Assembly: GCA_022813865.1 (NCBI GenBank) | Contig: JALDZX010000017.1 | Coordinates: 310,001-374,000 of the forward strand | Length of the DNA stretch: 64,000 nucleotides | Direction of reading: 5' to 3' | Source of the DNA: Xylographa opegraphella | Taxonomy: Eukaryota | Shown here: piece by piece, positions 43,295 through 55,085 of the stretch | Layout: each line of letters begins with the position of its first letter | How positions within the stretch are numbered: position 1 is the first letter of the stretch | Made by a program: the position numbers and the translations under genes | The notes under the pieces: generated by a model | Databases searched by the model: none | What the model was told of the DNA's origin: nothing | Seen by the model: only the letters and a program-made list of their open reading frames with translations

Positions 43295-46200
43295 ATGGCG
43301 CCTCCTACACTCAATGGAGGTACTGATATGGAGAGCAATGGGTCCACTTTGAAAGCTCCCAACTCTGCTCAGCAACTACCAAAGGCTCTCACCGGGCCTA
43401 AAATGGCTGAGGGAAATCGAAAGCCCGTTGCCGTTGCCGATGATGGGTCTCAGAGGTAAGCTCATCTCGTATCGTTTACAATTGTGTAATAGTCAATTAT
43501 AATCCTTAGATACTGATTGACTCCTTGATGGTTATTATGATTGAAGACTAATGCATTATCATCGTTTCTAGACGCGCCCAGCAGCCGAAGGCTTGGACCT
43601 CAAACATCAATCCAATAACGCAACAACCGCATAATTCCGCGCAATCTAATGGTAATACAACACCAGCGAGAAGCTCATCTCATAGAAGTATGGCATCCCA
43701 AGACCCTGTCGTGTCCGATCGGAACGCAAACGATCGTCAGATGTGGGCTCTAGGCAATGCTATTGTAAGACTTTACCACTGGCATTAACACCACGTTTTG
43801 TCTGCTTATTTCTCTGTAGGGTCTTGTTGGCACCGTTGTTACAAGAAAAGGTGATGCTTTTTCAGGAGTCTTTGCTGGCGCGACGACGGAGGTCAATGAA
43901 TCCACATTTCTTTTCAAAATGGTGAGGCATTTACTAGAGCGATCCAAAGCAAATACCAATGGAATCCGCGATTGCTCGGGCGAATATGTGGGAACAGGCT
44001 TTGATCATTCAATGGTCTTCAATGCTGGCGATATAGCAGATATCAGCATAGAGAATGTACCAACCACCACCGCTAGTTTTCCGAATGGTAAGCAATTTCT
44101 TCGGCCGCTGACAACGATCATGACCAAGCCTAATGAGTAGTAGGCGCTGGACAAGGATTTCGTATCGATTCGGATATTTCTGCTAATTTTGCATCACGAG
44201 AGCGAAACCTTCAGCGTTGGGAGGCTCCTTCGTCCACCGATGTTGACATGTCACTTGAAACCAGCGGAGAGTGGGATCAATTCAAAGCAAACGAGGAGCG
44301 CTTTGGCTTGAAGTCCGATTTCAATGAAGAGATGTACACCACTAAGATTGATAGATCAGGGCCGATGTATCGCTTGCGAGAGATCGAAGCAGAAAGGAAG
44401 GTCCGCGAAATTGAAGGTGACCTTTCAAGCAATTCTCATATCAGAGAAGAACGCGGCTTGGCGATTGAGGACAATGGACACAATGAAGAAGAGAAGTTGG
44501 TAACTGTGATAGGTTTCGAAATCATCACTGACATTCTACAGATATAGCGGCGTTCGCCGGAACGGTCTTGAATACCCTCCTTTGCAGTCTAATCAGCCTA
44601 ACAAATATACTCCTCCTGCCCGTAGAGCAGCCCATGTCAAACCCGCTACTACTGGCTCTGTCGATCCAGCTATCATTTCTGCACAGATAGCTCGTCCAGC
44701 GGAGTCAACACAAATTTCCGAAGTGCAACCAGTGGTCAGGGAAAAGGACGCAACCGTAATACCTAAGGCCACTATAACACAAAAAGGGACACAGGGCCCG
44801 GTGAAAGAGGAAGAGTCAACCCTGACTGCCACGCCAGCGCCTAAAAAGTTGGACACTCAAAAAGCCGCTATTGGTGCCACGGCGACTGAGAATGTCGAGT
44901 TTAACGTTCTCGATTCTTTCCGTCAATTCAAGAACACCGAGATGATGAAAGTCCAAGATAGTAGGCGTCAACGGCAATCGGTAGACAAGGCAGTCAAGCT
45001 AAATGACCTTATGAAATTTTCCAAGAACTTTAAGCTGCTCACTCCAGTCCCAGTTGATCTGGTACCTATCCTGGCCAAGGACAAGTCAAAGCAGGACGAG
45101 ATAGTTGAGAAGGCCGAACGCAATGCTAAGACTTTGGCTGCAGCTGGGAAATCCGGTAAGCTCTCGGCTTCGACTGATCAAAAGTCATCCAGATCGCTCG
45201 CTTTAGCACGATATGAAGTCGACACCGCCGTTTCCAATAACGATCTTCACAACTCGCGCGGGCGATCGGGTCAACCAGCACAAGTCCAGCACACTTCAAA
45301 AGACCGACCACATAATATAAATGGATCTAATCCGCCTGTACGCGCTCAGCAAGGCTTGTTGAGTCATCGACTTGCGGATAGTCATCGACTTCACAAAGCG
45401 AACATGCAGACTATGCCTGCGCCAAACCCTCTCCCTATACAGGATGCGCGCCACACCATTCCCAGACCATCAGTATCGGGCAGTGGAGTTTCAAGTCCAC
45501 AAGCAATAAATGGCATGCGGAGCCCAACGTCGGCCACGTCGGCCAAATTCAACGTGAAGGCTATGGAATTCAAGCCAAATCCTGCAGCTAATGCTTTCAA
45601 ACCTGGTGTAGATCCTAGCAATGCATCGAGTCCTAGGACAGGACTCAACACTCGCTCTGTTTCTCGAGCATCAACGCCTTCGGCCTTCTTTGGAGATCGG
45701 AAGCTGATCCCACTGGACGAACGTTCTTCTATACTAGACAACTTTAATCCTATCGTATTTCTAAGTGAAGAGGCAAAAAGCAATCCTGCTACCAAAAACT
45801 CAGGCTCCAACGGGGGCATCAGAGAAGCATTTCGGACTCCACCAACGTGGAACTCGCCTAAAGAAGGTGAAGAATATAGATCATACAGAGATATGTTTGA
45901 AAAGGCACGTCCATCACAAGCCTCGGCCATGCAGCACAACTCGCCAGTCAACCCACCACTTGCTCACCAACATCAGCTTCCTCTTCATCTACAGAATGGT
46001 CCACATGGTATCCCTCAAGTTCATACTCCGCAGCAAATACCGCATCAATTACCAGCTCAATCTCATCACTACCCCCCAGGCCCGCATCATTATGATGAAC
46101 ATCATATGCGTCCCTCTGCTTCTTCTTCGTCTGTTTATCCAGCACCATCACCACGGATGCAGTCAACAAACATGGCTTATCCTTCTCCTATGAACCACCA

Positions 46201-46843
46201 TGCTCAACTTGCATACGGCCAGCCCATGCCGCAGTATGTCGTAGGTCCGAACGGACCACAGCCCACCAGTTTTAGGCAATTTTCGGGCCCTCAGATGATG
46301 GCTCCTCAAGGACCTCACCTTGCACCTATCATGGTACAACAGCCTTCCGCAGGGGCATATATGACTGTGCCACAAGCAATGCCGATGCCGTTTAATCCTC
46401 AAATGGGCATGTATCCCGGTGCAATGCCACAACCTTACGGCGGGCCCTCCCAACCACCAAGCGGTTATCCAAGCCCTGGCCGTGGTGGACACATGATGAT
46501 GCAACAGGGCTCGCATCAAGGCCAACCAGTCTATATGGCGCCCAGTCAGTATGGTCACCCTGTTTACGCTCAGCAGCCACCAGCCCATAGTATGAGTCCA
46601 AGCTCCGGGTGTTTTACACACATACTGACTTCTGACATAGTGACGCCTATGCGCGGAGGTTTCACCTCTCCACAACCTCATTACGCGCAGAGTCCATACC
46701 AGCAACAGCAATACCCCCAACATGCTCTTCGTACACCTGGCAGTGGCTATGCACAGCTCAGCCAGGTTCATCACCAGCATATGCATCCCCACCAAGGTCC
46801 TCCGCCATCTGGCCCTGTGGAATTGGGGGAGGAGCCAAAATGA
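43295..46843 (+). CDS. PBP1: Ataxin-2 homolog / Pab1-binding protein (LsmAD, low-complexity Pro/Gln/Met C-terminus), several introns
   Basis: FRIDSDIS..RERNLQRW; LsmAD WDQFKANEERFGLKSDFNEEMYTTKIDRS..HIREERG; DLMKFSKNFKLLTPVPVDLVPILAKDK; PAM2-like FNVKAMEFKPNPAA. Confidence 0.9.
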
Positions 46844-47638: not shown

Positions 47639-48938
47639 TCAAGCCTTCACATTGTATCCCACCGCCTGCAGACTCTCCTTCAGCGCCCTCAAAGCCCGGT
47701 CGACGTCATCCCTTTTGTCATCCATGATACTGACGCCCATGTGACCGAACCTGATATATTTGGTTGCGATCTCCTTGTGCAGGCCGCCGGCGAAGACGAC
47801 CCCGCGCTTTAGCAGATGGGGCAGGATCTCGGGCGGCTTGATTTCGTTGGGGAGGTAGATTGCTGTCATGCCGTTGGCTTGGTTCTCGGCTTTCGATGCG
47901 AGCTGGGACAGTCCGTAGGAGGTTATGGTGGACTTGATGTGCTGCGAGACGGCGCGGTGGCGCGCAAAGCGGTCGGCGAGGGGGACGGAGAGGATTTGGG
48001 TGAGGGAGGTGTGCAGGGCGTGTATCAGCTGCGGCGACGGGGTGGCGAAGTATGAGGGCTTCTTGGCCTCGTAGTTTTGCATGACTGTAGGAGGATGATC
48101 AGTATTCTGTTCTGAGGGTCGATGTAGGAGAAGGTCTTGGGATTCTCAAAAGCAAGAAGCACGTACTTGGAAGCCAATTCTTGAAGGATCCAAAGTATGA
48201 GCTGGGGGGTGTCCGCCGGTTCTTGAAGACCTCGATGGCACGTCCGGAGCACATCATTATGCACAGACCGGCGGGACAGCCGATAGCCTTCTGGCTCGCG
48301 GTCAGTACGACGTCAATGCCCCATTCGTCGAACTGTATTTCTTCCGACCCAACGCTGCATACGCCGTCGACGACCACGAGAGTCTCCGGGCTGACCCTGT
48401 GAACGAGTTCCGATAGAGCCTTGATCTCGCTCAGGACGCCGGTACTCGTGTCCACGTGAGTAACGGTGAGGAGCTTGTACTTCTTCTCCTTCAGTGCTTT
48501 CTCCACTTCCGGCATCTGCGGCCGATCCCCTATCGGCGCCTTAAGCTGTGTGGCCTTGACGCCGTATGTCTCGAAGCAATCGGCAAACGAGTCCGCAAAG
48601 TAGCCGGTGTGCAAGACCAGAACTTCCTCGTCCCGCTCCACAAGGTTGGCAGCAACCATGTCCCAGCCAAGGGTACCGCTCCCGGAGATTACGAAGGGTT
48701 GTGAGTCGGGTCGTACGGTCTGGAAAAGCTTGCGGAGCATTGTAAGAGTGTCTCCAAATGTATTCACAAATGGCATGCCGACATGAGACTCGCTGCGACA
48801 ATCCAGTCAGCAGAGAAGGGGTAGGCTTCGAGATACTCTAGCCACATACCTATAATGGCTCATGCTTTGGAGGACCGCATCGTCAAATTCAATGGGCCCT
48901 GGTATCAACAGAGCTGGATGTTCAAGCTGGTTCGACAT
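47639..48938 (-). CDS. AGX1: Alanine-glyoxylate aminotransferase (class V PLP enzyme), AUG-initiated form; introns ~48793-48849 and ~48085-48166
   Basis: LLIPGPIEF, SGSGTLGWD, THVDTSTGV, VVDGVCS, TASQKAIGCPAG (PLP lysine), YFATPSPQL, IRFGHMG. Confidence 0.93.
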
Positions 48939-49193
48939 ACTGCCGGTCTTTTTCTTGCCCGCGTCGATGCCTTGGGGTGTAGATCGCGTAACGGGGGTGT
49001 ATGGGATGTCGTCGTTCGTAGCAGACTGCCGCTCGGTGGAGAAGGGGGTATTGATCTGTAGGACCGGTCTCTGCTCCAGATGTCGTGAGATCAGAGACAG
49101 ACGCTGTCTTGCGCGTGGGGTCGCCAGGGCTGATGATGATATGAGGGGTCTCCTAGCTATTCCTCGGCAGATCGATGAGCGCAGTGCGGCCAG
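48939..49193 (-). CDS. Putative CUG-initiated N-terminal extension of AGX1 (presequence + PTS2)
   Basis: In frame and stop-free, with no ATG in any frame from 48939 to 49310. CTG at 49193 (ACG-CTG-G) and 49127 (GCC-CTG-G). RLSLISRHL at 49077-49103. Confidence 0.65.
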
Positions 49194-51294
49194 CGTGACA
49201 AGCTGGGGGTACAGATACAAAATGGAATTTTAGGAAGCAAGGATATTAAAGTACACAAGTGCTGGTTGTCGAGAAAAATCGTACAGAAAGACTTTTCCTC
49301 AGGATTAGGGCATTTTGCGGTGAGCCCGATTTCGCTCTCCTTCCTTCGCAGCCACAAGAGGCTGGGCCTCGAAGCCACAGCAGGGGTCCACGGCTACGTC
49401 GTATTGAAGCCGAGCACATCCTTTTCTAAGAGACCACTTGCCGTGTATTAGACGTAGATTAGAAATCGAGACCATGAGAGGCATACGGCCTTCCCGGAGC
49501 TGGTTGAATGTGGTTGTTGTGGCTAAACCGTCTTCCAGCGTCCAAAACAGTGTTTGAGAGAATTGGTGGGATATGTCTGCTTTCCAATTGACGACAGGTT
49601 ACACACTGCTATATTGTTTGCTTGGAGATCCCCTCATCAAATATGGGCTTCTTGAGGTGATTGAGAGGTGACCATGAGGTGAGAACCTTTGCTTCATAGA
49701 TGGCAGTTTTAGCGTTTCTTTGCCGTATATCCAGGTACCTGGTATTCATTTTATGAACCCCGACCCTTTTTGTATACGAATCACACGCACGGGGTTGCTG
49801 TTCCTTTGGGGATATTCTTTCGTGAGAAACTGGACAAATATCTTCCACTTCCAGTCCTATGTCCTTGCACCTACAGCATCATCCTTCGCTATCACGGCCA
49901 TCAAAACCATGCTTGGTACAAATATAACCGGCTCATAGCTGCCAATCGCGTTGGAGTTTCTGTTGAGTCGTGCTTCTCCAAGCAAAGCGTGGTCGCGCGC
50001 TCAAGTCTTTGTGGGACGTTTTATCTTTTGCCTTGACCCACAACTTCTTCCCCAGCTGCGTACTTGCCATTGGTAGGTAACCCTACCTCTGGTCTTCTCT
50101 TTCAGCGGAAGTGATTCTGTCTCGGGATCTCCCCTGCGAGGAGTTCTGCTTGAATACGTATGTTGCGAGAAGGTCGACTGTGCCTTACATTTGTATGAAT
50201 CAGTGTTCTGCTATCTTGTCAGCCTCTTCATAACTCTGTCCTCCACAGAACTCAAAAATATATGGTGATTTGGTGGTTGTGATTTTAAATTCTCAAGTGG
50301 TACAAAGAAATTTTCAAAATCTATCAGCTTCATGAGCATACAATTACCAATGGAATTCAGAGTATGAACAACATAAACTTCCATAACGTGTTTAAGCCGT
50401 CGTGTCTACGTTTCATGTCTTCAAGTTCAGCATGCAGCTAAAGACCTGTCCTGCACTCACAAACGTTCAGGAACAGTGCATATCTTACCATCCGATCCTT
50501 CATCACAGCAATCAAGTATCTCCGCACCATACCCGTGACTATCACCAATCCCAAGCTCATCAATGACGCGCGAATTGACGGCCAGACCAAAGCGGTATCT
50601 GATACTTCAAGACATACGGACTTACACTAGCTCGACAACACGAAGCGGAGCAGCTCACAGCTATGGAAGCATTCGTGCTTCCCAGCGGAGCCAGCGCCAA
50701 CGCTAGCAATCTGATACATGTCCTAGAGGAATTACACAAGCTTACCATCCGCATCGACCTCAATCTGGCAAGACGCCTTGCTACGGGAGCCCGGTGTCAC
50801 AGGCTCGCCCTTGTTCGGAACAATGAACAGCAGGAAGAAGTTTTGGAGTTTTGGAATAGAATGGAGGGTGGGGGGTTTTCGAGGTAATCAAGTGTCTGCT
50901 GGACAATTGGGTCGAGAAGGTGATGGCTGCACTAGTCTAGAAGACAGCTGGGACCCAAATTGGTTGATATGGACGAGTTTAGAAGCAAATACAAAATCAA
51001 AACAGTGCAGTCACTTCACACTACCACAACTATTGATCTCGCAAATTGCGTACCAGCTAGCCAGATGAAATGCACGAGAGGTGTTCACGCTTATTGATGG
51101 TACAATACCCACGCGGCCGAGGACCCAGATCCCAACATTTATCTCAAGTTCTCTCTTAACTTATGCCAGTCAAAAATACAGCATCGATCTCGGCTCCTCC
51201 CGTACGTTTACATGATGGGTATCGCAAAGCATGTACACCTATCCAGCCTACACCCCAGACCTGCCCCATCCTTAGCAACATCTCACACCCTTTG

Positions 51295-54200
51295 TCAGCT
51301 CTTGGGCTCCAGCTTTCTCGATGGTACAGGGCGCTTCGCCGTCTCTATGTTGCCAGATTGCTTCGCGGATGTGATTCTGATCTTGCCAATTCCGGGTCTG
51401 GAGAAAATAGACTTTTTAGCTACCTGAGACTTATCCACGGCTGACATTGAATGTCGATCTGCAGCACCTGCTTTCTTCGGTGGTGGGGGGATTGTAGGTT
51501 CACTGTTCCTAGGCGGAATCAATTCTATCGTACTCTCGTCAGAATCGGTCTCTGACTCGAATACATCGCCATTTTCTTGACTCCATCTCGTCGCTTTAAG
51601 TTTGGCCTTCCGGTTCGCTTCCATTTGATCTGCGACGTGGTGATCGACGTCATCAGTAGAAGCTGCCACTTCGCCGGCGATGTCAGTGTCGGGTCCTGGT
51701 TGAGTCACAGCACTTCCAGCAGACTGGACAGGATGTATGACCTCATTAACGATTGCAGAAGGTTTGGCAGATGTAATCGCAGTCTCGGCGCTCTTGACAA
51801 CTTCGACGTGCTTCTTTCGCAAGGAGTTCCGGTTTGGTTCGTCTGAAAGCTCTTTCGGCAACTCCGACGTATCTACAGGACTTCTCCGTGCTAGATAGCC
51901 TGGCAGTGAGCGTCTTTTCGACCTTGACTCGTTGATAGCAGGGTCTACAAGCTCAATCTCCGGTTCATCTTCCGCATTACTCTCAGATTGTTCATCGTAG
52001 TCTACTGTCAACGTTCTCCGTCCCTTGGTATTTGTTGCTGTTGATATTCTGCGGCTTTTTCTTGTACTGAATTCGTCATCATCATCCGGTGGCACTGCCT
52101 TGGTTAATTTTCGCTTCTTAGTTTCGGCTTTTCCGGCAAGTACAGCATGATTGCTGCTGGTCTGGGGAAGATCAGACGATATGATAAGGACGGATTCTTC
52201 TCGGAATGCCGATGCGAGTGCCTCAGAGTTTATGGCGCGTCGTTGTTGATCTGTGTTAAGCTCAATCTCAGCCAACCTTGCACTGGAAATATTGAGCTTG
52301 ATAATTTTCCTCTTGTCGCCTGCTTTGATTGGATAAGTGGCGACTGCGGTCGGAGTCGGCAGACCGGGAAGATCGCTTCGAACCATCGTACGATCCTTTC
52401 CCTTACGCTTCGAAGCTGTAGATGGCTCGCTATTAGCTTGCTGTGGCTCCTCAAGGACATGAAAGGGCTCTGGCTGGGTATAATGGCTGGGCTGTGGAGA
52501 TAAGGCAGGGCCAGTCGGGTCTGGGTACTCATATGAAATGCCGTTATCCGGTATAGTGAACTCTTGAGATTCCGGATTGGAGTCTCCCATAGCATATAGT
52601 GCGTCCTGCGCTGCTTTCTGGAATGGCAGACTCTCTGATGGGTGGTCAGTCATGTTTGCAATTGGCGCCCTCGCTTCCTTGCCGTTAACACGAGAAGAAA
52701 GTGGTGGTTGATCATATCCAAGGCTATTCAAGAGTGGATCGATCGGAATATCGTCGTGCTGGTCTCCATTGGTATGAGGTCGTGCTTCAGTGCTGTGAGT
52801 CATCTGAACTCCCTGATCGTCCACATAATGTTCATCCAGAGTAGGATCTCTTGACTTTGCCATTTGAGCTTCATCCTGATGTCTGCGTAGTCGTCGAGTT
52901 TCATGCGGATGATCATCCCCAGCCTTTTTAACAAAGTGTATGTTCGAATGGCTGAAGTCAACAAGACTCTCAACGCTTCGAGGATCTGCGAATTTTTTGG
53001 TGTCGTGTCCCAAAATGGTGCCTTTCGGCTCGAACGGCTTGGTCAGGGGATTTTTGCGACAACTACTACAATGACAAATCTTAAGACAACGAGGGCACTT
53101 CCAATCTGGATCTTGCATCACGGTCTGCGGCATCATGTCAAAACCGCGCCACAGTGTGCCATAGCAGAATGCTGTACCGCAACTGCAGATCGCGTGCTTC
53201 CATTTGGGACCGCGGTGAACACATATGTGGCAACTGACATTATCCTGGAGCCACTTTTCAGACCGCCTCTTCTTAGGTTTTTTCTTGACAGAGCCATCAT
53301 TATTGATTTCGTCTTCTTCAGGGGCTTCATCCACTTCTGGCTCAACATCGTCCTGGATTTGCTTCTTCGGATCGTGCCAGGGGCGAAGTTTGAGCTGCTC
53401 TTGGCAAATTTCGGCAAGAGTCTTATGTTTCAGGCGCTTTCGCTCGAACTCCAAAGTTTTCGGTAGGCTACCGACAATTCCTTCTTCGAAATTTAGAATC
53501 TGGGTTCGCCAGAGATCGTGCTTCTCTACAAGATCTTTCCATGGAAATTGCTCCACCCATTTGAATTTGGAAAGACAACGGCAACTTCGACCCATAACAT
53601 AGCACTCCATGCAAATATCATAGCTATCTTCCTCGCCATTTGCCAATGGTTCGACACAGGTAGGGCATGTTAGAAAGCGGTTGAAGATGTTGCACCGACA
53701 ATAAGAGCATGTGATGTTGCTTTCATATGGTAGGTACTGCACGCGCTTGTCGAGTGGTACGCCTGGTAAAGGCATTTCCGACAATAAGATCTGAGTATAC
53801 AGGATAAACAATCGTTTGAAGTCCTTCTTCAACTGTCGGATCTTTGAACTGTAGGTCAAGTCCAATAGCTGCTGTTCATCGGACACCGCGCGCTTCTGAA
53901 GTTCCACATACCGTAGAATATTAGAGTAGCGTTGAAGAGAGAACAAGACTATGGCCTTATTTTTGTATTGCTCGTCACGACATACCAGCCGAGCGCGCGG
54001 AAGCGCCTCATTTAATGCCATCTCCAGGGTTTCTACCGTTGTTCTATTCCATGCAGCTTTCATTGTTCTTGTGCCCCGATTCCACACTTGATGAGGAGCC
54101 AAGGGAGGTATGAGTAAGAAATCACCGACTTTCTGCTCGACGATATAAGTGGTGAACGGCGCGGCTTTCCAGGCATTTATTTGCGCAAAATGAGACTCGA

Positions 54201-55085
54201 CCTCGATGTCGTGGCCCAAAGTAGAAAGCCAATATTCAGAGACTAGGTGCCTATCTTTCGTCTCTGTCATGAACCAGATCGAAGAGCCTGGTTTGGTTGG
54301 TTTGCCGTCTTCTCCAACAAGACCGGAAGTTTCGACCATGATGTTCTGGCCGAGGCTCGCGCACATCTCTCTATGAGCAGGGGTGTACGTCCCTTCGTGG
54401 CCGATGTAGCACATCATATTCTCCGCCCGCATAGCGGGCGGCAGGCAGCTCATCAAGTCGCCAGCCCTAGCAGCACCTCTACTTTTGCGCAGACCGATTC
54501 CATGAGGGTTCTGTTCATCCGCCGATCCTGGCCCTCCAACCTCTCCAGTACTATCATTCAAGTAGAAGACCCCGGCTGGTATCTGCTCCTTCAGCTTGTC
54601 ATGCCACAGTGGAGGACAGTCAATATCTTTCAGATAGATGCGTTGCCGATTGGGTTCCTTGTAGTTGTAAGGATTCCACTGGTTCGTTAAAAGCGGCAAA
54701 TTGTTCAAGTAGTGGTTGATAGAAAGTGGCATGTTCTCTTTCTTCGTAAGATTACGGGCCTGCTCGACTTCTCACTAGTCAGTAGTTTTAAGACCAGACA
54801 CAAGCATAGAAACGTACATGTCTGGCCTACATTGTCCCTTAACCAGCGTGTTGTGAATGTCCATTTATCCAATTTATGCTGGAAGCCGTCTATGACCAGA
54901 GGCTTTCCACCGATGATGACATGTAACAAGACGAGCTTCTCGAATGCTTCCAGGCCTTGGTGCTCAATCATGTCACAGGGTATCCGCGTGACATACTCGA
55001 AATTCGGTGTGCTCTCGACGAGCGCATCGAGGTCAAGGTTGGGAGGAATTGGCTCGAAGGCTGCTGAAGGGCGTTGAGCTGGCAT
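51295..55085 (-). CDS. JmjC-domain chromatin protein with Cys-rich and zf-4CXXC_R1-like zinc fingers (DMM-1/KDM3-like); 1 intron near 54765-54817
   Basis: IYLKDIDCP, GTYTPAHREMC (HxE), IPPLAPHQVWN (distal His); CSYCRCNIFNRFLTCPTC..DICMECY; CHIC..ICSC..WKCPRCLKICHCSSC. Confidence 0.85.

Follow-up and report, generated by a model that had tools for sequence, protein, structure and literature searches.

An AUG-less, conserved leader with a PTS2-type motif and two candidate CUG starts upstream of a fungal alanine-glyoxylate aminotransferase

The gene and its leader

The stretch of Xylographa opegraphella DNA analysed here, 64,000 nucleotides of contig JALDZX010000017.1 (positions 310,001 to 374,000; hereafter the window), carries on its minus strand a gene for a class V aminotransferase, to which sequence similarity assigns the activity of alanine-glyoxylate aminotransferase (AGX1/AGT). 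The exons listed in Table 1 are the only combination of GT-AG introns that yields one open frame. Translation from the ATG at 48938 would give, after splicing, a protein of 386 amino acids ending in NVKA, the C-terminus that a previous, sequence-only reading of the same DNA had named. Exon 2 matches the Pfam family Aminotran_5 (PF00266; E 4e-19), and a protein search returned matches named alanine--glyoxylate transaminase, the best of the named ones belonging to the lecanoromycete (lichen-forming) fungi Umbilicaria, Icmadophila, Bachmanniomyces and Polycauliona. Full-length AGT homologues share 58-87% of their residues in pairwise comparison.

The reading frame does not begin at this ATG. Upstream of it, the frame remains open for 97 codons (the sequence-only reading had counted at least 94) until it is closed by an in-frame TAA. 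The coding strand between 49312 and 48939 does not contain a single ATG in any of the three frames, making an ATG-free stretch of 374 nucleotides, where about 370 had been claimed; by chance, at roughly one per 64 positions, about six would be expected. Two CTG codons stand out in the leader frame, and their contexts are as previously described: the one at 49193 reads GTCACG CTG G, with an A at position -3 and a G at +4, and the one at 49127 reads TCAGCC CTG G, with a G at both positions. We refer to them as start 1 and start 2, or CUG1 and CUG2, and to the ATG at 48938 as start 3. The segment from 49193 to 49128 translates as LAALRSSICRGIARRPLISSSA, which is basic and free of acidic residues, as had been noticed. 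It is followed, from 49127 to 49104, by LATPRARQ and then, from 49103 to 49077, by the nonapeptide RLSLISRHL, which agrees with the consensus of the type 2 peroxisomal targeting signal (PTS2) that had been proposed for it. This nonapeptide would occupy residues 9-17 of a protein initiated at CUG 49127 and residues 31-39 of one initiated at CUG 49193. No Pfam family matched the leader.

Table 1. Positions of the AGT gene and of the elements of its leader in the window
Feature	Position	Strand	Remarks
AGT core coding region	47639..48938	-	exons 48938-48850, 48792-48167 and 48084-47639; TGA at 47641-47639
Two core introns	between AGT exons	-	GTATGT...CAG and GTACGT...CAG
Start 3, main AUG (MSNQLEHP...)	48936..48938	-	core enzyme of 386 aa, without N-terminal signal
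Variable acidic, Pro/Ser-rich linker	48939..49028	-	QSATNDDIPYTPVTRSTPQGIDAGKKKTGS; poorly conserved in the alignment of relatives
Conserved box NTPFSTER	49029..49052	-	8 residues after the PTS2
PTS2-type nonapeptide RLSLISRHL	49077..49103	-	from translation and comparison of 61 leaders
Start 2, CUG	49125..49127	-	would yield a 449-aa isoform, PTS2 at residues 9-17
Basic, acid-free segment from start 1 to start 2	49128..49193	-	(M)AALRSSICRGIARRPLISSSA; resembles a presequence
Start 1, CUG	49191..49193	-	would yield a 471-aa isoform (85-codon leader plus 386-aa core)
In-frame TAA closing the leader frame	49230..49232	-	13 codons upstream of start 1
Nearest upstream ATG, two-codon mini-ORF (open reading frame)	49305..49313	-	ATGCCCTAA (ATG CCC TAA); 120 nt upstream of CUG 49193

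Conservation of the leader as coding sequence

Relatives of the leader were collected as proteins and as DNA. A protein search with the leader and exon 1 as the query returned 302 proteins at E<=0.001 among 1094 candidates. The core motif PGP[IV]E[FI] is present in 118 of the 120 matches listed, and in 113 of these 118 it is preceded by a PTS2-like 9-mer. The remaining five are models in which the protein starts only after the 9-mer, the first residue of the 9-mer is lost to splicing or its last residue is a variant (as in P0076, RLDQVSRHV). Judged by source name, the matches span at least five classes of Pezizomycotina (Lecanoromycetes, Eurotiomycetes, Dothideomycetes, Leotiomycetes and Sordariomycetes). 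The DNA sample was taken from metagenome contigs, where 288 pattern matches yielded 194 confirmed loci, of which the best 80 were kept. Seventy-six of the 80 loci, and the window, could be parsed into a frame running from a stop codon to PGPIEF, giving 62 distinct leader DNAs. One of them, L018, was set aside for its partly deleted PTS2, leaving 61 leaders, 60 from metagenome contigs plus that of the window, and it is to these that the counts below refer. Four more loci (L041, L061, L062 and L067), with a variant of the motif or a frame break between leader and PGPIEF, stand outside all counts; inspected by eye, all four contain the same PTS2 and three of them the x-L-A start motif.

The leader frame is open in every relative that was parsed. 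An alignment of relatives had been proposed as a check on the frame, the PTS2, the CUG context and the depletion of ATG, and all four turned out to be conserved among the 61 leaders. Over 25 ungapped codons between the 9-mer and the NTPFSTER box (51 sequences), the entropy at the three codon positions is 0.70, 0.44 and 1.46, and the invariant Arg and Leu residues of this stretch use most of their synonymous codons. A chance open frame was rejected because third-position entropy and synonymous variation of this kind are typical of coding sequence. From its pattern of substitution, the AUG-less leader is thus a conserved coding element and not a product of chance.

Conservation of the start positions and loss of AUG

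The codon aligned with CTG 49127 is a potential initiator in all 61 leaders: CTG in 37, ATG in 18 (including L033, at distance 4) and GTG in 6. It lies 4-13 codons before the PTS2 9-mer. All 43 non-AUG codons at this position have a purine at -3 and a G at +4, while ATG is found there in relaxed contexts, including a C at -3 and bases other than G at +4. Elsewhere in the leaders Leu is encoded by CTG in just 75 of 475 cases, and a start-like codon meeting the same definition occurs just once in 2777 codons of the linker. A quick tree built from the core region, with 53 rows, requires no fewer than seven changes of the start-2 codon and no fewer than nine of the start-1 state.

At the codon aligned with CTG 49193, 41 of the 61 leaders have a potential initiator (CTG in 30, ATG in 10 and GTG in one), located 10-32 codons upstream of start 2. 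The two kinds of codon again differ in their surroundings, with A at -3 and G at +4 in each of the 30 CTG cases, and a pyrimidine at -3 and a base other than G at +4 in each of the ten ATG cases. Start-like sites at 20-130 nt before start 2 number 59 in all; 42 of them share its frame, three lie in frame 1 and 14 in frame 2. The signal that follows start 2 is conserved at its defining positions, with Arg or Lys at position 1 of the 9-mer, Leu or Ile at position 2, His at position 8 and Leu or Ile at position 9, each in 61 of 61 leaders. The core Met is found 11-14 codons (mostly 12) before PGPIEF in 57 leaders and 20 codons before it in the other four, the L028 group.

From the first start to the main ATG, a single out-of-frame ATG is present in 13,842 nt, and 60 of the 61 leaders do not have any. 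Exon 2 of the same loci, used as a control, contains 195 in 23,979 nt (8.1 per kb). Base composition predicts 89 out-of-frame ATGs in the 61 leaders against the one observed, and trinucleotides with the same three bases in another order are found out of frame 22-129 times. Internal ATGs in frame number 17 and coincide with start 2, except in L070, where a second ATG follows two codons after start 1, and in L072, where it lies inside the 9-mer. The depletion extends upstream: the nearest ATG before the first start is at a median distance of 189 nt (n=55), against a median of 44.5 nt for the background. In 36 of the 61 leaders the stretch from the upstream stop to the PTS2 has no in-frame ATG; five have in-frame ATGs solely far upstream in unconserved sequence, and 20 have ATG at start 1, start 2 or both. 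Removal of out-of-frame AUGs from a leader is what leaky scanning requires.

Taken together, comparison among relatives strongly supports translation of the leader, with both CUGs at conserved start positions, where relatives may have AUG or GUG instead, and with a nearly invariant PTS2. It also supports near-cognate initiation and leaky scanning as the route to a PTS2-bearing and an untagged isoform, and a non-AUG-initiated PTS2 isoform is very probably made.

A reading with three nested starts

The best explanation of the whole, to which we assign a probability of about 0.7, is that one AGT mRNA is read from three nested in-frame starts via leaky scanning. A minority of the scanning ribosomes would initiate at CUG 49127, producing the isoform that has its PTS2 close to the N-terminus and that would be imported into peroxisomes by the Pex7 route. 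Most ribosomes would pass through the AUG-free leader and start at AUG 48938, yielding the untagged enzyme, which would be cytosolic unless carried in as the dimer partner of a tagged subunit. Initiation at CUG 49193 would add a basic, acid-free segment of 22 residues, for which the likeliest, albeit much less certain, role is mitochondrial import overriding the PTS2. If a mitochondrial N-terminal signal overrides the PTS2, this would explain why a separate start is conserved just before the PTS2. The efficiencies of initiation and the destinations of all three isoforms are what we infer from the arrangement of these elements.

A more ambitious version would extend this arrangement to the Pezizomycotina as a whole: one AGT mRNA serving three compartments, mitochondria from CUG1, peroxisomes from CUG2 by means of the PTS2 and the cytosol from the AUG, with starts tuned in strength by evolution (CUG or GUG always in optimal context, AUG always in weak context) and with the PTS2 forming part of a larger, so far undescribed module together with the NTPFSTER box. 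We put this version forward tentatively. Were the long form mitochondrial, AGT would be a natural three-way targeting switch; the PTS2 isoform would place the conversion of glyoxylate to glycine beside the peroxisomal glyoxylate cycle. A leader read from CUG would be a rarely documented way of placing one enzyme in several compartments.

Several observations weigh against this reading. The sample consists of the best 80 of the 194 confirmed loci, many of them closely related to one another. The leader of L018 (a 1672-nt contig), which is near that of the window (STVAALRPSICRG...) and has GTG at start 1, CTG at start 2 and no out-of-frame ATG, keeps both starts and yet is without six residues of the PTS2 (ISRHLE), a gap that could reflect either natural loss or faulty assembly. 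A stable hairpin was not found after either CUG of the window; the 80 nt following CUG1 have a z-score of +2.0, worse than shuffled sequences, and those following CUG2 one of -1.05. An in-frame start 1 is absent from 20 of the 61 leaders, and three leaders that are Eurotiales-like by their named matches (L046, L052 and L053) have start 2 only. The segment that follows start 1 has an amphipathic moment not above that of shuffled sequences: 16 of 41 segments reach p<0.2, and that of the window has p 0.45 (median of the maximum hydrophobic moment 0.60, vs 0.51 when shuffled). In the closest relatives (L001, L002, L005, L006, L007, L010 and L011), the start-1 motif GTCATYCTGGCG is retained out of frame. 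In these seven closest distinct leaders it lies 38 or 32 nt from start 2, at about 2460-2500 in most loci, and opens an ORF of 9-20 codons that ends just before start 2 or overlaps it. Since CUG1 is out of frame in L001-L011, either the long isoform is dispensable or start 1 has another role; these leaders look like a lineage whose long isoform has turned into an upstream ORF.

The peroxisomal localisation known for a fungal AGT also bears on the question. AGT1 of Magnaporthe oryzae was reported to be peroxisomal and functionally important (Bhadauria et al. 2012, PMC3338719). Its published model is of 385 amino acids and starts at the core Met; full-length fusions to green fluorescent protein gave no signal, and the localisation was obtained with a C-terminal fragment ending in QKA (PMC3338719), which again counts against targeting by the leader. 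Therefore, a second route may exist in some fungi. In the parts of the study that are accessible, targeting is ascribed to this C-terminal QKA and an N-terminal PTS2 leader is not considered (PMC3338719); AGT is absent from a set of 65 in-silico PTS2 candidates of Magnaporthe (PMC3237427 supplement). Published localisation of AGT, for instance in this rice blast fungus, may have overlooked the main targeting signal.

The first start and the basic segment

The most serious alternative concerns the fate of the longest product, which might not be mitochondrial at all. With its PTS2 at residues 31-39, it could be peroxisomal as well, a second isoform of that kind; or CUG1 could mainly tune the flow of ribosomes to CUG2 and the AUG, acting as an in-frame or out-of-frame upstream start. 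The out-of-frame CUG1 motif of L001-L011, which opens a short overlapping ORF, the 20 leaders without an in-frame start 1 and the unremarkable amphipathic moment are all in line with this alternative. The composition of the segment points the other way. In the 41 leaders that have a start 1, the stretch from there to the PTS2 contains 185 Arg or Lys (16%) and only six Asp or Glu in 1166 residues, while after the PTS2 the leaders hold 314 Asp or Glu in 1912 residues. With a net positive charge, almost no acidic residues and plenty of Arg, Ser and Thr, the 17-42 residues ahead of the PTS2 have the composition of a mitochondrial presequence. Short motifs, RRPL and R-x-Y-P-[SA], turn up repeatedly in this segment, in lineages far apart. 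If the long form itself functioned as a PTS2 protein, the separate conservation of start 2 would be difficult to account for, and the weak context of the start-1 ATG in ten of ten cases is as expected if downstream starts need to be reached. On balance we give a non-mitochondrial CUG1 product somewhat less than an even chance, and a mitochondrial one, a label derived from composition, even odds.

The sequence-only reading had proposed that leaky scanning yields a mitochondrial (CUG1), a peroxisomal (CUG2) and a cytosolic (AUG) isoform from one gene. Translation of the leader, the conserved starts, the PTS2 and the purge of AUGs speak in favour of that scheme. Its mitochondrial branch fared less well, as a fate assigned from composition, with a moment no higher than in shuffled segments and with CUG1 out of frame in L001-L011.

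As to the motifs preceding start 2, R-x-Y-P-[SA] is the form seen in Dothideomycete- and Leotiomycete-like leaders, and RRPL that of the window and of other lichen-fungus leaders. To regard them as a processing site of the presequence is speculative.

The PTS2 and the adjoining box

A refined form of the PTS2 pattern is R-[LVIQ]-x-x-[LVIHQ]-[LSGAK]-x-[HQ]-[LAF]; it fits 52 of the 61 leaders. A second conserved element, NTP[FY]xxER, is present in 60 of the 61 and, in 50 of these 60, is spaced 8 residues from the end of the PTS2. We know of no described feature of PTS2 signals that resembles a box at such a fixed distance. An AlphaFold2 (AF2) model was available of a homologue, P0023, rather than of the window protein; calculated from an alignment of 56 sequences, it has a mean predicted confidence (pLDDT) of 80.7. 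Its residues 1-95 are of low confidence except for a helix, residues 28-39, that covers the PTS2 9-mer, and the NTP[FY]xxER box sits in the low-confidence, disordered region.

The fixed spacing of the box and the lack of a Pfam family on the leader leave some room for a different function of the RLSLISRHL and NTPFSTER module, not as a signal for Pex7 but as a bipartite mitochondrial presequence or processing site, or as a regulatory or degron element. We consider this unlikely. The four defining PTS2 positions are kept in every leader and most fit the refined consensus; the motif is predicted to be a short helix in an otherwise disordered tail; the 9-mer begins at residues 5-14 counted from start 2, which is a typical position for a PTS2; and AGT is peroxisomal in Magnaporthe, according to the published localisation (PMC3338719).

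In four leaders (L028, L035, L037 and L043), and also in the unparsed L041, the 9-mer reads KLSLISRHL, with a Lys in place of the Arg at position 1. In the L028 group the usual core start is without a Met (…GISTPRQPEHP), and the last in-frame Met is eight codons further upstream (PTMAAAKG).

Upstream exons and public gene models

The leader might also be reached from a conventional AUG in an upstream exon, in which case the CUGs would be ordinary Leu codons. What speaks for this, and against initiation at CUG, is that the interval 49284-49203, bounded as GTACGA...CAG, could be an intron that joins the frame of an ATG at 49419 to the leader in phase, neither piece being interrupted by a stop. 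With 82 nt it equals the second intron of the gene in length, and several public gene models have upstream exons grafted onto the leader. However, in a DNA alignment of 15 relatives, conservation starts at A..CTGGC and there is none further upstream. The grafted N-termini share no similarity among themselves, and several NCBI models are flagged as partial. The position of CUG1 is occupied by ATG in other lineages and, when it encodes Leu, always by CTG; the leaders of relatives are poor in ATG upstream of the first start. Judged against the familiar consensus rather than a computed one, the donor departs from the usual T at +6, and CTAAA makes a weak branch-like sequence. These points make an upstream AUG exon improbable.

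The public gene models disagree at the 5' end of AGT (P0008, P0010, P0011, P0025, P0027, P0035, P0044 and others). Some have unrelated upstream exons grafted on and two lose the first Arg of the PTS2 to splicing; the models flagged as partial include several of Penicillium and Aspergillus, and other models begin at the core Met. Fungal AGT gene models thus appear to be systematically wrong at their 5' end, because the leader is missing an AUG.

The lack of an AUG in the window's leader might suggest a 5' leader that is not translated and owes its conservation to the RNA or DNA itself. This is extremely improbable, given a third-position entropy that exceeds that of the first two codon positions two- to threefold, invariant residues that use most synonymous codons, a frame that is open in all parsed relatives and the AUG that many relatives have at the same start positions.

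Relation to known systems

The closest precedent is the 6-phosphogluconate dehydrogenase of Ustilago maydis, Pgd1, which has a cryptic PTS2 in the annotated 5' untranslated region, reached by non-AUG translation from a tandem AGG AUU (Kremp et al. 2020, PMC7214817). With AGT it shares a PTS2 upstream of the annotated AUG, the lack of an in-frame AUG and conservation in related fungi. In Pgd1, near-cognate initiation leads to a minor peroxisomal isoform beside the cytosolic one, and it is the same layout that we propose for AGT. The enzymes differ, as do the initiating codons, AGG AUU in one case and CUG in optimal context in the other. Unlike Pgd1, AGT would have two tiers of starts, at positions that interchange with AUG or GUG in relatives. 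The Pgd1 case has been shown experimentally, whereas that of AGT is comparative. The words "aminotransferase" and "glyoxylate" do not occur in the text of PMC7214817. If our reading is true, AGT would be the second, and a far more widely conserved, fungal PTS2 isoform made by non-AUG initiation; the comparative signature, with start positions in 61 of 61 leaders and a roughly 100-fold depletion of AUG, could be a template for finding further cases.

For the mammalian enzyme, AGXT, distribution is known to vary between peroxisomes and mitochondria (Danpure 1997, cited in PMC3798809 and PMC4585086), and N-terminal mitochondrial signals are reported to override peroxisomal ones (PMC4585086). The mammalian and fungal proteins are assigned the same enzyme activity and belong to the same fold family, and in both an optional N-terminal mitochondrial signal, proposed in the case of the fungal protein, would compete with a peroxisomal signal in the product of one gene. 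They differ in the peroxisomal signal, which in AGXT is C-terminal, resembling the type 1 peroxisomal targeting signal (PTS1), and in fungal AGT would be an N-terminal PTS2 reached from CUG codons. Mammalian AGXT uses AUG starts, chosen by alternative transcription or translation starts.

The context of the CUG codons also has a parallel. A at -3 and G at +4 are conserved at the near-cognate starts of Neurospora cpc-1 and its homologues in Pezizomycotina (Ivanov et al. 2017, PMC5487733). In the main text of that paper AGT has zero occurrences. The extension of cpc-1 serves translational control of a transcription factor; for the AGT leader, organelle targeting is proposed instead.

In yeast, ALA1 (ACG), GRS1 (UUG) and CCA1 (three AUGs) each produce organellar and cytosolic isoforms from a single mRNA by means of nested starts in the same frame. 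These examples concern mitochondrial and cytosolic or nuclear forms, and none of them is known to pair a presequence-like tier with a PTS2 tier. No paper describing a PTS2 or a non-AUG leader on a fungal AGT was found in the open-access literature. We regard the AGT leader as a case of a non-AUG-initiated targeting extension, of a kind already known; the three-compartment design is possible but unproven.

Neighbouring open frames

Upstream on the strand of AGT lies an open frame of 1158 amino acids (51295-54771, minus strand), the end of which is about 2.1 kb before the AGT leader. Downstream of AGT, and convergent with it, is an open frame of 776 amino acids (44513-46843, plus strand) that is rich in Gln and Pro.

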